Notes under the pieces: model-generated
Seen by the model: the letters and a program-made list of their open reading frames with translations, nothing else
Databases searched by the model: none
Told to the model about the DNA's origin: nothing
Source: Harriotta raleighana
Lineage: Eukaryota
Reading direction: 5' to 3'
Assembly (NCBI GenBank): GCA_050575255.1
Contig: JBNZDD010013722.1
Span: forward strand, 8,172,880 to 8,236,879
Length of the DNA: 64,000 bases
Made by a program: the position numbers and the translations under genes
In this document: positions 28,193 through 64,000 of the stretch, piece after piece
Numbering within the stretch: the first letter of the stretch is position 1
Layout: each line of letters begins with the position of its first letter

Positions 28193-29734
28193 AATAATGA
28201 TTGACATACCTGTAATAGATAACGAAAGAACTGAAAGCTTTCTGCTTTAAAATTCATAATGAACAATAACAAATTGATTACTTCAATCCATGACTGTTTG
28301 TGGGACATTGCTGTGTGCGATTGGCTGCTGCATTTCGCCTACACATGTACAGCCAATTCACTTTACAGTATAGTATATTCTGTGAAATGCTTTGAGAAGT
28401 CAAGAAGACAACAACAATTTGCACTTATATAGCACCCTTCGCGTAGGGTAGTTTCCCAGAGAGCCTGACTCCNGATTGGCTGCTGCATTTCGCCTACACA
28501 TGTACAGCCAATTCACTTTACAGTATAGTATATTCTGTGAAATGCTTTGAGAAGTCAAGAAGACAACAACAATTTGCACTTATATAGCACCCTTCGCGTA
28601 GGGTAGTTTCCCAGAGAGCTGTGGTGAGTGGGAAGGTGGCTGAAAAGGGAAGTTTTCAGGATAGATTTGAAAGAGGGAAGAGGAGGCAAGGTGAAGGGAT
28701 TGAGCGAGAGTGTTCCAGAGTTTTGGAGCATAGAAGCTGACCTCTGATGGTGGGGAGGAGGGTGCGAGGACAAGAGGAGGAGGTCAGAGAGGTAGGGAGG
28801 CCAGGGAGTGAATGGATTCGAACATGAGTGTGACGATCTTGAAGTTGATCCATTCAGTGATGCTTGAGGGAAGGTCTCAAACCCACAAACCAACCCACTT
28901 CACTGCACAAATCGGAGAGTTCTTTATCCAGAAATAATAGAATATTAATGGGGCAAGTGTGTAAGTGAGCGCAAGATTAAAGGAGAAAGAAAGGGAGAGA
29001 GAGGGAGAGAGAGAGAGAGAGCAAATAAAGAAGAAACTGTGTTGCCTCACAGTTTCTGGCAACCAGAAACTGTGAGGCAACAAAAGTCAAGTGTTGTGAT
29101 TGTTTTAGAAGGAAAATAGCTGCAGTGCATGAAATATAAAATGTTTCGACAAATTTTTATTTCCATCCATGACTAAGATACATAATTTTTAAGTAGGTGA
29201 ACACACAACAAGGAGTTATTGTGCTCTGTTCTCTAAATGCGCCAAGTCTTAAATGCGGCAAATTGATGGACTTATACAATGGGAAATCCTAACGTAACCA
29301 TTCGTGGAAAGATTCATTTGACTTAATGTTTTGTGCGTAATATGTCCCTAAGGATGGGTGTCGGGAAGAATTTTTTAAATTTATACCTAATATTTATATT
29401 AATGCTTATTATTATTATGCACACAGTATATTCCTGTGAATCTTAGTCCTGAAAGGTGTTACGAAATGTAAGGATTATTATTTAGATCTCAAATCAATTG
29501 CAACCACCTCTGAAATTGCAACATTGGTTACCACTGTCAAACAGAATTAAAACTTCACTTGGAGTACGACAACCTCTAAGTTTATAACAAACTAAACCTA
29601 AATCATGTCACTTTTTGTCTTGCCTCAAGAGTCTGGTCTAGATACACTTAAGCATGCAGATGCTTAAACTTCGAGATGGATATTCTTAAGTGTGGAGATA
29701 GGTATGGAACTTACATACCTAAAATAATAAAATA

Positions 29735-52243: not shown

Positions 52244-52335
52244 TTTTGGATCACATTTTGCAAGCTTAGCAGCATGCCCAATTCGCTCTTCATCTTTTCT
52301 CTGTTGGACCTGCATTCTGACAAATAACGCAGTGC
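52244..52335 (-). CDS. ARMC1: ARMC1 coding exon 2: [30 protein letters not shown](K)
   Basis: Manual translation matches ARMC1 [31 protein letters not shown]; acceptor ccttAG, donor GTAAGT; 92 nt, phase 2. Confidence 0.97.
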
Positions 52336-55261: not shown

Positions 55262-57115
55262 TTGTTGGCCAGGACACAGAGAAATTCCCTTCTTCTAACA
55301 TTCACCTGAGTAACCTCAGTTTAACCTCCAATTGCAAGACTTCATCTCCAACAATGCAAAGTTCCCTCAGCGCTGCAAAGGAGTATCAGTGATAAAATCC
55401 TGATAGGGACTTACACGTGTAACTCTCCGACTCTGAGACTACTAAACTACTAAACTGACTAATTAAAATATTACATTTATAGAGATTTATAACACATCAA
55501 AAGCATAAGCACATATTGCATTAGGTCAACAATTGAATAGCAACTGCAAGTTCTGCGCAATACTGTTTGATTTAGTTAAAAACTTGTTATTGAGAAAAAT
55601 AAAAATGCGATTCTCCTCCAGATCTTATTGTACTAATTTATGCATTTTCAACATATAAATACTGTCAAAGAAACATAATGTTAAAAGATGCAGTTTGTTT
55701 TAGTGGTGTTAGTTAGTAGAGTGTTATTAGAGTTTAAGCTGCATGTATCAAATAAGGAATCTTATACACAGTATATTTTAGCTACAGAAACAGTAATCAC
55801 TGATCTCAGGTGTAATTTACTGTGCCATTCTTGTGTAATCCTGAAAGTAAAACATCATTGTCGTAGTGCAATATGGGTACTACCCTAAGGCAACAGCAGC
55901 AAGACAAAGGGTCCTCACAAACTTTTATATTAATCTGCCAATGCTAAGTAGCACTAATGTACTTCATAACAGAGAGCAAAATAAAAAGCTAGATGAAGAA
56001 TACTGTATCTCACACCTCCTTATCGCCAGCTTCAAAGCAGCTTATTGGGGTGGGAAAATGAAATATGACAAAAATCACTGAAGAAAGGGGAGAACATTTA
56101 AAAAAATATATTAACATGAATAGCCAAATGCTGTAACTGTGAAATCTATCACACGCGCTTTACTCACCTCCACATCTCATTACACTAATACTGTCCTACT
56201 TAGCCTTACCAACACTACCTTTCCTGATGTAAACCTGCAGCTTATTCGTTCCCACACCAGACTCTAACAGGAACAAAATTACACATATAGAGCACTTTTC
56301 ACATCAGGAGGATGTACCAAGGTGCTGAACAGTCAGGTCGGGACCCGAGCAAGGGAGAGGGGCAGGGTAGGGAGGAGAGGGGGAGACAATTAGGAGGGGA
56401 AAGTTGGGTGGGCAGCAGAAGGCACAGTCGAAGAGGGTCTTGAGACCGGCCTTGAAGGAGGCGAAAGAGGGAGCGAGGCGAAAGGGGGAGCGAGGCGAAA
56501 GGACTGTGGGATGGAGTTCCAGAGTGTGGCGGCAGAGACTAAAAGCCCATCCGCCGATGGTAGGGCAGGGGACATGGGAGCAGGCTGAATGGAGGGGGCA
56601 GGGAGGTTAATAGGAGGACAGTAGGTCGGTGAGGTGGGGAGGGGGGGGCAAGGCCATGAATGGCCTTGAAGGTGAGGACGAGGATCTTGAATTTGATAAG
56701 TGTATACTCCATAAGTGTAAAACTTCCATTTATTCCATGTCCCAACCATCAGCAGATGAGTCTTCAGCCACTTTGTCTCTCCAACTTTCTCCCTGAATCC
56801 CTCCAAATTCTTATTAATAATAATCAACAATGGCGGAGCCTGACTCCCAGCTGGGGTGGGGGAGGGGTGTTCATAAGCATGGTGAATATGGAAAGTTTGC
56901 AAGCGGGATTTGTAAAAGGGGAGAGGGTCAGGGGGGGATTGCGGGAGTGTTCCAGTTTCGGGGCGTAGTGAAGAACATCGCTACACCCCGAAACTGGATG
57001 AATCCTCACCATGGTCAGGTTCTCACTTAATCTGCGTGAATCACTTTGAGATGTTTCAATTCTTGTGCAAGTTGTATAGTAGTTATACCAGGAAAACAAT
57101 GCAGTTGATGCTGCA

Positions 57116-57308
57116 ATAATAATAATAATCCTTGCATTTGATATAGCACTTTTCACATCTTCTAGACTTCTCAAAGCGATTCACAAAATATTCTGTAAAG
57201 TGAATTGACTGTATATATGTGGGCGAAACGTGGCAGCCAATTACGCACAGCAATGTCCCACAAAGAGTCGGTGCTTGAAATTACCAAGTTTTTTTTGAGA
57301 GGGATTAC
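57116..57308 (-). mobile_element. Deu-SINE 3' half in an ARMC1 intron
   Basis: Tail and Deu core present, head absent. Similar 3' fragments at 9215-9395, 18028-18120, 28260-28410, 32075-32250, 40093-40182 and 51487-51598. Confidence 0.85.
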
Positions 57309-57360
57309 TGGTAGTTATATATAGTAGTTATATGAAACGTCCTCTCTGCCTGTTGGTCTG

Positions 57361-58108
57361 TCTGCCCTTGTCCTCCCTCACCCCACCTTCCCCATCCAAT
57401 CCCTCCTCTGCCAGCTTTGCAAATAAGAAGAACGCAAACTCTAAAAGCAGAAATATTTAAACAACATATATCTAGGGTTAAAGGAATTTCAAACTGTTTT
57501 TAAAAAGAACAAACCCAATGCTTTCTATTCAATGTAAAATTTTCAATCCTCAAGGATTTATCTAGTATTGATGTTCAGCAAGTCTGACTTCAGAATTAAC
57601 CCAACTGTAACAGGAGTGGTTTCATACTCGCTCTTGTTTTGTTCAATCTGAAATAACAATTTATAGATCTGCAGTTTCAACAATAAATTGTCAGATCCAA
57701 AACACTGACTGTCCAGCACTTTGGGATGTCCTCCCAATGTGAAACAACAACAATAAAATGCTTAATAGAATGCAAATACAGTCTACAACCCCATTATAAT
57801 TTGGCCACATAATGCTGGATCACTTATAAGCTCAGTTCTCTGTGGATCTGAGCACGTGGATCAACCAATTCCCCAGATGTCAAAACATGGCCAATTTCCT
57901 ACAAAACGGATGCACTAAACAGTTTATTTGAACTTACCGATAGGGCAGAGTAAACAACTTGAGGGTTTGGGTGATCTAAGAATTCCTTTAACCCTAGATA
58001 TATGTTGTTTAAATATTTCTGCTTTTAGAGTTTGCGTTCTTCTTATTTGCAAAGCTGGCAGAGGAGGGATTGGATGGGGAAGGTGGGGTGAGGGAGGACA
58101 AGGGCAGA
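57361..58108. repeat. Perfect 128-bp inverted repeat (57361-57488 / 57981-58108)
   Basis: tctgcccttgtcc...ggttaaaggaatt is the exact reverse complement of aattcctttaacc...ggacaagggcaga by base-wise reading. Confidence 0.95.
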
Positions 58109-58263
58109 TCTATAAATGGTCATCAGGTCACCATCAATGTGGCTTCCTGCAGGTAGGACAATTGCCTTGTAAGTTAGATTTTGAAAACGGATGCACTAAA
58201 CAGTTTATTTGAACTTACCAATAGGGCAGAGTAAACAACTTGAGGGTTTGGGTGATCTAAGAA
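57903..58263. repeat. 80-bp direct duplication of the ARMC1 start-exon 3' end and donor (57903-57982 copy of 58184-58263, one substitution)
   Basis: Also visible as identical ORF starts [18 protein letters not shown] at 57928 and 58209; the single difference is 57939 g versus 58220 a. Confidence 0.95.
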
Positions 58264-58380
58264 AAGTATCAACCCAGGTAAACATCCCTGATCCTGGACA
58301 ATTGGTCGTCTATTTAGAGGGTCAGATGCCAGATCTCGCAGCTGGTTTACTACTGCTAATGCATCAGGCTCACCACTCAT
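58219..58380 (-). CDS. ARMC1: ARMC1 coding exon 1 (start exon): [54 protein letters not shown]
   Basis: Translation closely matches the vertebrate ARMC1 N-terminus as I recall it (human [40 protein letters not shown]). ATG at 58380-58378; acceptor tttttcAG puts the exon start at 58432; donor GTAAGT at 58218; 162 nt, phase 0. Confidence 0.97.
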
Positions 58381-59272
58381 TGTGCCACCATCCACTTTGC
58401 CATATGTTTGACAACCTTCTGAATATTTCTTTCTGAAAAAGACACAAGACTTAACATTTAGTACATTCGGTACCCACTGATCATATTTAACAAGGCTACA
58501 AATACATACAGGTCCTTCACTAAGCAATTAAGTTAATGTCAAAGTCCTCATTGGAATACCACACAAACACATACTGTATTAGGTCAACAACATCAGGTCT
58601 GTATTTGAAAACCAGTATTGTATATTTTAAAATAATATAAGCCCTTCCTGTGTGTACAAGTTAATCAAAAGTATAAAATAAAAACGTAAAATCTATCTTA
58701 TGGTATAGACTACCATTATACAGTAGTAGATCCCAATGCCACTAGTCAAAACGAGAGAGGAATGAGTCCTGGACAATATTTCCCTGATAAAATTGGTCAT
58801 TCACTTAATGGCTGTTTGTGGGACCCCAATGTAGACAAATCAGCTGCTGTGTTTGTCTACAAATTCAGTCATCAAAAATACAAGAAAATACGATTCAACA
58901 TTTCGCTGAAAGGCCAATAAAAACAAAGGTTGCCCAGAGTTAAAGAAAGAGGGGCGGGAATCCACTTCTACATGTCACTAAGCTGTGGTACAGCACTCAA
59001 AATAGCTTGGGAGAGGCACCGGCCCGTGTGTGGGGCGCCTCTGCTTTGAGGGTCGCGTCTGTCATTCTCAGGGATAAAGAGCGACGACGTCGGTTCACCT
59101 TAGGATGTCCCTTAACCAGCAGCGATTGAGAAGCGGCCAGAGGCCTACCTGGCTATGGGAGCCCCGGGCAGGGAAGCGAGAACGCGCGCGGCCTTCCCTC
59201 TTATCGCAGCCGACTCAGCGTTTCACCTCCAGTCGGGATAGGATAGGACAGGACAGGGCCGGCAGCGCTTAC

Positions 59273-60786: not shown

Positions 60787-62395
60787 CATAATCCTTGCGT
60801 TTGATATGTTTAGTGCCTTAACACATCTTTGAGACGTCTCAAAGCGCTTCACAGGTTATACTTTGCAGTGAATTGATTATTTTGTGGCCGAAACACAGCA
60901 GTTGCACTCAGCTGCCAATTGCACACAGCAGTGTCCCACAAACAAACATTGATTGAGTGACCAAATTTTGTTTTTTAAACTGTTTCTGATGTGATTATTA
61001 TCCCCGGAGAAGCCATCCACCAATCAGCTATTACTTACTGCTAAGTAAAGAGGCATGTGGAGAAAGGAAACTTAGCTTTTATTTCGCCCTACTGGGAATC
61101 AAACTCGGGTCATCTCACCAGGGCTCTAAGCACTAAGCTACATTTCAAATGACTAATTGGTCAGCCCCTTAAAAACAGCTGTTATCGCCCCCATCCTGAA
61201 AAAACTTTCCCTGGACCCATCCCTACTCTCCAGTCACTGCCCCATCTCCAACCTCCCATTCTTCCAAGGTCCTGGAATGAGTTGTCGCATCCCAGCTTTG
61301 CTCTTTTGTTTCCTGCCATTCCCTCTTTGAACCCCCGGTCAAAGCTCGGATGACATTGTAAACATCTGTTACTACCTCCTTGACTTCTCTGCTACCTTCG
61401 ACACCGTTAACCACTCTATCCTCCTTGACCACCTCTCTGCTCAGCTCAATCTTTTTGGACCTGCCCTTGCCTGGTTCCAATCTTATCTCTCCCACCGTCT
61501 CCACTAAGTTGCCACTTTTCCTCCAGCACCACGTAATGTCCTCCAAGNCCAATCTTATCTCTCCCACCGTCTCCACTAAGTTGCCACTTTTCCTCCAGCA
61601 CCATGTAATGTCCTCTGTCGTGTCCCTCCCCATTTCAATATCTATGCTCCCCTTGGTGACATAAACCACAGACATGGGGTCAACTTCCATATGTGTGCAG
61701 ATGATACCTCTCTCTGCCTCCACCTATATTTCTAGGACCACTACTGACAGATTGGTGAACATCAGTCCTGGATGAAAATTAACATTCTACAGTTGAATGT
61801 CAGCAAGACCGAGGACCTCTTGATTCTCTCACACCAGGTTGGCTTGGGATTAGGAGGTCATAAAGGTGGAGGGGCAAGGCCATGGAGAGCTTTGCATGGG
61901 CTTACCCCTCCACCTCTATACCATGCATCACATATCATTGTGGAACTCCTGTGGCTCAGTGGTTAGAGAACTCGCCTTACATGCCTTACAAGCATGAGGC
62001 CTGTGTTCGAATCCAGGCAGATCAGGGCGAAATCTTGGGCAAGTTTCCTTACTCCACATGCCTAATAATAATCCCTCCAAAAAAAACTACAATAATAAAA
62101 TTGGTCATTTCAATTCATGACTGTTTGTGGGACACTGCTGTGCGCNTGTTTGAATCCAAGCAGATCAGGACGAAACCTTGGGCAAGTTCCCTTACTCCAC
62201 ACACCTAATAATAATCTGTCCAAAAAAAACACAATAATAAAATTGGTCATTTCAATCCATGTCTGTTTGTGGGACACTGCTGCCGCATTTCGCCCTCAAA
62301 TACAGTCAATTCACTACAATCTATTCTGTGAAGCGCTTTGAGACGTTGATAAGATGTGAAAAGCGTTAGATCAAATGCAAAGATTATTATTATTG
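60787..62395. mobile_element. MTFR1 intron repeat cluster: degenerate Deu-SINE (60787-61140, -), L2 RT fragment (~61160-61835, +), Deu-SINE (61941-62395, +)
   Basis: L2 RT remnants DFSATFDTVNHSILL and catatgtgtgcagatgatacc (YADDT-like); SINE consensus. Confidence 0.8.
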
Positions 62396-64000
62396 TCAGC
62401 CACCCAAATCCTCCCTCCATAGACTATCGAGAACTCTGCAGCCTATGTGCTCTCCTGCACCATTCTCCATGAACCTATCACCCCCATCCTCGCTCAACTT
62501 CACTGGCTTCCCATCACATTGAGATACAATTCAAGGTTCTGATCCTCGCATGCAAGGCTCTTCATGGCCTTGCCCCTCCACCTCTATGACTTCCAAACCC
62601 CAAGCCAACCTGTTGATTCCCTCCTCTCACATCCCCCACTCACCATTAGCAAGCGAGCCTTCAGCCACTCTGCTCCGAGTCTTTGGAATTGCTTCCCACA
62701 ATTGCTCCACCTAGCCTCCTTCAAGTCCCACCTCAAGATCCTCCTCTTTGACTGTGCCATCGGTCACTCGTGTTCCTTCCACCCTCCCCAATCCCGACTC
62801 CAGCTCAGGTCCAAAACACTGACCGTCAGTGGGACATCCTCCCGACTTGAAAGGCACTATACAAATGTAATTTTGTTGGTGGTAATAAATAAGAAATCCA
62901 GTTAGAATTTACAATACAACTAATTTTTCAAGAATCTTACTTGTCAGACTCCTGCACCACACTCTGCAGGTCCATCAACTGCCTCCTCGCTCGGTTCCAT
63001 TTACTCAATATTCCAGCAAATTAAATTTTTACCTATCCCTTTAAGTGCTTGCATGGATTTGTCACACCCTACCTTCATGACCCTATATCCCTGGTTATTC
63101 CCTCTATTCGGCAAACATTGGCCTGCTTCACAGCCCCTATGACCTACTTTACACATGTCCTACAGCGCTTTATCTCTCCATATATATCTATGAGGTTCCA
63201 TAAATAAACTTTTTTATATGAATAATGCATTGATACAGGTAGCTTCAAACTGAAATTAATTATTCATGTGTTTGTTGTAAGTTTCCATTAGATTTTCTTC
63301 TCTTTCTTTCATTCCTCTCACTCTTTTTGCTCTAACTTCTCACCCGAAGAGGTGTTGGGTGCTTATATTTGCACTGACTGACCTGGAATTTAATGACGTT
63401 GAAAGTCTTAATTGTTCCCTGGATGTAGCTGCTTCCTTGTTTTTGTGCTTCTAAACTGGATAATTAGTTTTCAGTACATTTCTGTCCAGTATGCACTACT
63501 GCTAAAATAATCATTCTTGATGACTTCAGTGGTTACCATCAACTATTGTAGTTCCATTTGCGCCTCAATTTCAGGCAGGCACCAATGCTAAGCTGTTGGA
63601 ATGTTGAATGATCTTAATTATCTTACCCTGTTTCCTGATTACAATGAATCTTCTAGATCGTTTTCTCATCTACAGACTGAACTCTTACAACAACAAAATT
63701 ACATTTATAGAACGCTTTTCAAGTCGGGAGGAAGTCTTATTACAGTTATGGTGACTCATTGCTAGGCAAACCACACCCAGTCAATGAGAGTTAACTTATT
63801 TTAACAATGTAGACCACTGCTGCCTTTTTGTACAATGCACACAAGAAATGTGCCTCTCTTCCATTCAGTCTACCCCTTAAGATCTTTATACTTATAAGTG
63901 TTGACTCANGCTGCCTTTTTGTACAATGCACACAAGAAATGTGCCTCTCTTCCATTCAGACTACCCCTTAAGATCTTTATACTCNTACCCCTTAAGATCT

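Follow-up and report, generated by a model that had tools for sequence, protein, structure and literature searches.

A three-template insertion in an ARMC1 intron of Harriotta raleighana copies the gene's own splice donor and probably leaves a near-silent pseudoexon

The ARMC1 intron that follows the start-codon exon carries, in the assembly of Harriotta raleighana, an insertion of 215 nt (57903..58117, minus strand) that reproduces, among other pieces, the end of the exon together with its splice donor. We are fairly confident that it represents a complex microhomology-mediated templated insertion which left a near-silent pseudoexon. It is probably an ordinary harmless mutation, not a new control switch. 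The analysed stretch, referred to as the window, comprises 64,000 nucleotides (assembly GCA_050575255.1, contig JBNZDD010013722.1, positions 8,172,880 to 8,236,879 of the forward strand). Positions are those of the window unless stated otherwise, and "above" and "below" follow the minus strand, on which ARMC1 is read.

The start-codon exon (58219..58432, minus strand; 214 nt, ATG at 58380, 54 codons; acceptor 93.2, donor 87.3) finds its best matches among named ARMC1 proteins, with 93-98% identity. All six coding exons join into an intact spliced frame of 275 amino acids, which rules out loss of the gene. The true donor, GTAAGT, follows directly after 58219 and normally pairs with the next coding exon (52244..52335, minus strand; acceptor 81.3). 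The protein is described as mitochondrial in the accessible parts of PMC6808451 and PMC11980836. An MTFR-family gene is situated head-to-head with ARMC1 just outside the window. This pair is mirrored on another contig, where a more distant ARMC1-like paralogue (L012; G000:C13700:4241744-4259442; 42-74% per exon to shark ARMC1) has another MTFR-family gene as its head-to-head neighbour. The start-codon exon also contains an upstream open reading frame (58403-58377, minus strand) of eight codons with two ATGs, out of frame with ARMC1; its TGA overlaps the ARMC1 start ATG and, from this arrangement, it might influence initiation. Residue 26 (58305-58303, minus strand) is proline, which occurs in 6 of 115 matched homologues, coelacanth included; alanine occupies this position in 108 of them.

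The insertion point is located 101 nt into the intron, below the preserved ancestral intron start (58118..58218, minus strand, 101 nt; present from 58122 upward in relatives X5 and X10). Three pieces, all on the minus strand, account for every one of the 215 inserted nucleotides. Piece 1 (58104..58117) is an inverted copy of 14 nt from 57659-57672 (14/14), piece 2 (57981..58108) an inverted copy of 128 nt from 57361-57488 (128/128), and piece 3 (57903..57982) a direct copy of 80 nt from 58263-58184 (79/80 in the window); their lengths give 215 nt after subtraction of overlaps of 5 and 2 nt. The templates are found 66-541 nt from the insertion site, in mixed orientation, with two pieces inverted and one direct. 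Template 2 (57361..57488, minus strand) supplied the piece with a branch-like CTCAC, a C-rich tract, CAG and both stop codons discussed below, whereas template 3 (58184..58263, minus strand) comprises the last 45 nt of the exon and the first 35 nt of the intron, including the true donor. Within the window, the 128-nt and 80-nt repeats are far beyond chance (E 7e-70 and 8e-39, respectively). The inner junctions show overlaps of 5 nt (J2) and 2 nt (J3); the outer ones, judged by the present letters, display no exact microhomology at either J1 (4/6, interrupted) or J4.

An earlier note on this DNA had described two locally copied pieces, the inverted copy at 58108-57981 and a duplicated tail of the start exon with its donor (here 57982-57903), and the coordinates and letters it gave are correct; 58117-58104 has to be added as a third. 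It had also placed a 117-nt cassette at 57938..58054 (minus strand), 164 nt below the true donor, and this was confirmed, with CAG ending at 58055 and the copied donor after 57938. Two other interpretations of the locus were rejected. The 80-nt repeat is no target-site duplication, as it is not adjacent to the site and 66 nt of ancestral intron lie between. The segment 58183-58118 is not inserted foreign DNA, since it has a single genomic match and is present in relatives.

The insertion is likely to have arisen by template switching via microhomology during repair of a break or a stalled fork. Synthesis would have copied the opposite strand of an old retroelement copy downstream, first over 14 nt and next over 128 nt, before it jumped back, copied the exon end with its donor and rejoined. 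The absence of exact microhomology at two of four junctions weighs to some degree against the microhomology reading. Judging from the scar, the polymerase may have acted in either break-induced replication or theta-mediated end joining, both of which leave such traces. Similar MMBIR/FoSTeS-like events, termed MMB-TI, are described in the available part of PMC8421209; they share with ours several nearby templates, mixed orientation, short overlaps at switches and lack of large rearrangement. Event FG-16 of that study also has three templates, and germline insertions with three templates are there counted at 33 and 26 in two people. In contrast to these, two of our templates are 230-540 nt away, beyond the 100-bp search reach given there, and one spans an exon-intron boundary.

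It is hardly credible that duplication and inversion were produced by assembly. This possibility, which the earlier note had itself named as fatal to its reading, was checked, and the junctions were present in contigs of samples X1, X2 and X3. A junction was counted as bridged if at least 31 letters matched on both sides. J1 is bridged in X2 and X3, J2 in X2 and J3 in X1; at J4 the short side amounts to 30 letters in all three, with contigs ending at the repeat branch. The X2 contig (261 nt over 57953-58213) and the X3 contig (58079-58213) do not differ from the assembly, and the X1 contig follows the duplicated unit for 78 nt and then enters the inverted piece. Altogether, these contigs show 0-1 differences, and their ends fall at the very points where a second copy makes the path branch. 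Raw-read runs X21 and X22 were left out as support, since they perhaps derive from the assembly's own sample; their depth over the insertion is 0-7 and no joint is listed there. Their variant letters at 58018 and 58036 equal the usual letters of the repeat family and were set aside as reads of paralogues.

What lends an artefact some weight is that, of 40 near-identical pairs of local repeats in 464 kb, 36 are separated or flanked by N; the repeat pair of the insertion has none. Near-identical direct repeats with N between or beside occur at 28319-28619, 61477-61615 and 63819-63983, and another 33 in the flanking 400 kb. Such N-flanked direct repeats are most likely gap artefacts of this assembly, and N-adjacent artefacts are thus a concern for other findings of duplication in this genome. 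Near N is also an inverted pair of 1.7 kb with 99.5% identity and overlapping direct repeats (L029:4050-8626; G000:C13722, about 8400929-8405505), which is either a real young rearrangement or a misassembly.

Relatives X5 and X10, the two that cover the site, both lack the insertion. In these, 57899 joins 58122 with five letters between, where the window has seven non-insert letters. From this joint, 58183-58118 is old intron and the insertion itself extends over 58117-57903 (215 nt). The listed piece of X11 (organism D) reaches only 58207 and therefore gives no information on the insertion site. Copies differ from their templates at one position in 208 nt (upper 95% bound 2.7%), which indicates that the insertion is young, unless conversion kept the copies alike. 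Divergence of the relatives in this region is 5.8% for X5 and 5.4% for X10. The copied donor is preceded by TCG in the assembly; in X1 and X2 the 80-nt unit forms an unbranched contig that has the original TTG. Unitig structure at a depth of about 5 suggests that TCG is likely private to this assembly.

The insertion is present in all three examined samples of study P1. The joints listed for X1, X2 and X3 (depth 2-7) include no empty-site joint, which fits a common or fixed allele. Since these are three samples from one study at such depth, an empty allele could have been missed.

The earlier note had considered the case as exon birth "without a transposon". This does not hold, because the acceptor half is retroelement sequence read antisense. 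Templates 1 and 2 lie within an old copy of a dispersed, non-coding, retroelement-like composite repeat (57115..57759, minus strand; 77-82% identity over 460-680 nt). The 645-nt copy aligns at 77-82% with all eight fetched loci (L003-L010), and its 128-nt part has at least 29 other genomic matches of 78-89% identity. An ATT-type tail is found at the same place in eight of nine aligned copies (L005 is incomplete), whereas their 5' ends differ. The last 190 nt belong to a high-copy repeat with dozens of matches within the window. By these sequence features, the repeat is read as a non-autonomous retroelement that would be mobilised by LINEs. The repeat also occurs in relatives X5 and X10. It is composite, with a tail-like piece at its 5' side opposite in direction to the element's own 3' tail and about 350 nt of mid-copy sequence between the two. 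Rfam analysis of four loci detected no tRNA within the repeat. A tRNA-like match outside it (L003:2916-2987, plus strand, 52.9 bits) is perhaps a SINE head, and an RVT_1 fragment is located elsewhere in the window.

The source repeat lies in the sense direction of ARMC1, so its inverted copy is antisense. Piece 2 shares nine of nine letters private to the local template 57361-57488. It was thus copied locally, with no transposition, and fresh retrotransposition is ruled out as its origin. On this sequence evidence, the copying step itself would be no transposition, with a transposon involved as raw material. At the place of the candidate acceptor, all eight other repeat copies have one or two AGs, the best score there being 72-79. 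Certain letters of the local template are rare in the family and favour the site: there is no competing AG four bases upstream, and a branch-like motif is present.

Splice sites were scored by the Shapiro-Senapathy calculator with human matrices (PMC7175933 supplement); the scores take no account of enhancers. The candidate pseudoexon (57938..58054, minus strand, 117 nt) has an acceptor of 79.1 and a donor of 86.7. The latter is close to the true donor (87.3), and among the 325 GTs in the intron only 3, with the site itself counted, score as high. The acceptor is much less distinguished. Of the 343 AGs in the intron, 39 (again with the site counted) score at least as high, and all six real ARMC1 acceptors tested score higher (81.3-94.4). 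It has 5 T in 17 positions, compared with 8-11 in five real ARMC1 acceptors. C-rich tracts bind U2AF less well. On the other hand, the branch-like CTCAC precedes the AG by 35 nt and no other AG intervenes, and the cassette is of good exon size, begins purine-rich and ends in the 45 nt that also close the real exon.

A better acceptor was already present in the ancestral intron. This latent site (exon start 58146, score 88.1) lies 72 nt below the true donor and has a CTAAC branch-like motif at 58177-58173, a pyrimidine tract and CAG|G; X5 and X10 share this stretch. Paired with the copied donor it delimits an alternative candidate pseudoexon of 209 nt (57938..58146, minus strand). This form would leave an upstream intron of only 72 nt with the branch point 45 nt from the donor, a distance near the steric limit. 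The intron also contains an older AG-GT pair (56263-56168, minus strand, 96 nt) with scores of 86.2 and 92.7, both above those of the candidate. AG-GT pairs of such quality are common by chance: each strand of the window has 11 donors with a partner, and real ARMC1 donors make up 4 of these 22.

The claim that one rearrangement created both splice sites can therefore be kept in part only. A young event did set a strong donor (86.7) 117 nt below a plausible acceptor. However, the same donor has another possible partner, the ancestral acceptor at 58146, which scores higher. Since the acceptor of the cassette is ordinary, the ancestral one stronger and the older pair 56263-56168 higher on both sites, what is new is the donor.

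A point which the earlier note had missed is the predicted pairing of the acceptor with its own template. In the pre-mRNA, piece 2 and template 2 are predicted to form a perfect duplex of 128 bp (-251 kcal/mol, z -27.6), in which template 2 is the 3' arm and the copied donor falls into a loop of 492 nt. In the full fold, the branch site, tract, CAG and both stops have P(unpaired) of 0.00. Before the second arm is made, P(unpaired) of the candidate CAG is 0.59-0.68. By prediction, the CAG is still open when transcription has reached 57450 and closed by 57400, about 640 nt after its synthesis. Of the 74 cassette nucleotides within the duplex, 35 are A, and both stops fall in this part. Stable structure lowers Alu exonisation according to excerpts of PMC2639721, while co-transcriptional folding, as presented in the accessible part of PMC2724269, acts mainly within about 60 nt of the polymerase. 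Masking by the duplex may thus be partial or too late.

Spliced in phase 0, the 117-nt form adds L-C-K and stops after residue 57 (CDS nt 172), as the earlier note had read it, and a second stop follows. With the 209-nt form and the 281-nt extension included, stops occur after residues 57, 61 and 68 (CDS nt 172, 184 and 205), all far enough above a downstream junction for the 50-nt rule. In the 117-nt form, the stop (codon 58) ends 105 nt above the cassette end and four more junctions follow below, against the 50-55 nt that the rule asks for. The stops of the 117-nt and 209-nt forms, however, are inside the 200-nt start-proximal zone, where NMD is often weak, so efficient decay is not assured and the earlier note's label of an NMD-triggering exon is weakened. 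The edge of this zone varies gene by gene from about codon 22 to 100, as far as the accessible text of PMC12776119 goes.

Templated insertions and pseudoexons made by rearrangement are each a known kind. Our search, which misses most subscription papers, brought up no title or abstract opening on this exact pairing; in the partly available sources, each kind is reported separately. A pseudoexon by definition is spliced into a measurable share of mature transcripts (PMC7175933, in excerpt). Among the sequencing runs surveyed, none from RNA covered this stretch, which speaks neither for nor against splicing; six entries presumed to be RNA (shares 0.14-0.15) come from another organism and were left out. 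In the partly accessible DMD catalogue PMC7175933 and survey PMC8819188, inversions or deletions likewise bring together an acceptor and a donor and lead to a premature stop. Those cases were seen in RNA and are mostly wholly inside an inversion, whereas ours is a candidate read from DNA; here one site copies the gene's own donor and the other adjoins its complement.

Exonisation of antisense SINE/Alu elements (parts of PMC11263572 and PMC2639721) also takes an acceptor and pyrimidine tract from a dispersed repeat read antisense, most family copies having AGs at the same place and inverted pairs forming RNA duplexes. It differs in that our piece was copied locally and not retrotransposed, the donor is not repeat-derived and the pair is 100% complementary. 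In human F7 intron 7 (excerpts of PMC1557585), 5' pseudo-sites are likewise copies of the true donor just downstream in the intron, and these identical copies remain silent. F7, however, has a 37-bp tandem array, while ARMC1 has one copy 281 nt away. Acceptor-like sites are found between the true and the copied donor here, so that a separate exon is possible, unlike in F7. Under exon definition, upstream donors win (PMC9225289, available in part).

With a near-silent pseudoexon, the true donor would be taken first, as the partner of a strong acceptor 214 nt upstream, and the copied donor would be left with only middling acceptors. By the time the polymerase has moved on by about 640 nt, the acceptor of the inverted piece is, by prediction, completely paired. 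Taken together, the aberrant forms would account for less than about 2% of transcripts even under an NMD block, and the allele itself would be nearly neutral. Several observations oppose near-silence, namely the strong donor, good cassette size, branch-like CTCAC, favourable template letters and the acceptor open in nascent RNA. They give some room to a possible, though rather unlikely, outcome in which the copied donor is used measurably (at least 2% with NMD blocked) but is unregulated, in the 117-nt, 209-nt or 281-nt extension form. The 117-nt form would take about half of this share, and the result would be a newborn pseudoexon without function that trims ARMC1 output slightly. Measurable use is suggested by the strong donor with its branch-like motif, suitable exon size and real exon tail, by the predicted opening of the acceptor in nascent RNA and by human inversions and deletions that yield pseudoexons with scores in the same range (PMC7175933, in the part available). 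It is disfavoured by the ordinary acceptor with many equal competitors, predicted to be fully paired in the finished intron, and by the silent donor copies of F7 (PMC1557585, in excerpt). The 209-nt form is further burdened by its need for a 72-nt intron with a branch point 45 nt from the donor.

A working poison exon, with substantial inclusion that varies with tissue or condition, seems very unlikely. It might be set by whether splice factors bind before the 128-bp duplex closes, or by A-to-I editing of that duplex. The geometry would permit such a kinetic switch, as the CAG is predicted to close while the polymerase passes from 57450 to 57400; the many A in the paired cassette part (35 of 74 nt), where both stops lie, would suit editing, and the insertion was found in three of three examined samples of study P1. 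Against this, the event is very young, and NMD is often weak at a start-proximal stop. Conservation is the usual mark of regulated poison exons; with the insertion absent in both relatives covering the site (X5 and X10), the candidate has none. Only the slightest chance is given to a model of one repair event that would have built a self-gating exon from a copied donor, an inverted acceptor and a complement closing seconds later. Polymerase speed and ADAR would then decide on inclusion, and once its two UAA stops were edited, the 117-nt poison form would become an in-frame exon of 39 residues that repeats 15 residues of the ARMC1 armadillo helix. Editing-dependent exons have a human precedent in NARF, which one review does not mention.

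Taken as a near-silent pseudoexon, the insertion is a species-limited repair scar of three templates that duplicates a real donor. The case shows no exon birth free of transposon sequence. It offers a natural experiment on two questions: why strong copies of a donor remain silent, and whether pairing in a perfect, long-range duplex can hide an acceptor in vivo. If RNA proved inclusion, we would have a newborn exon together with its empty ancestral state, known from two relatives.
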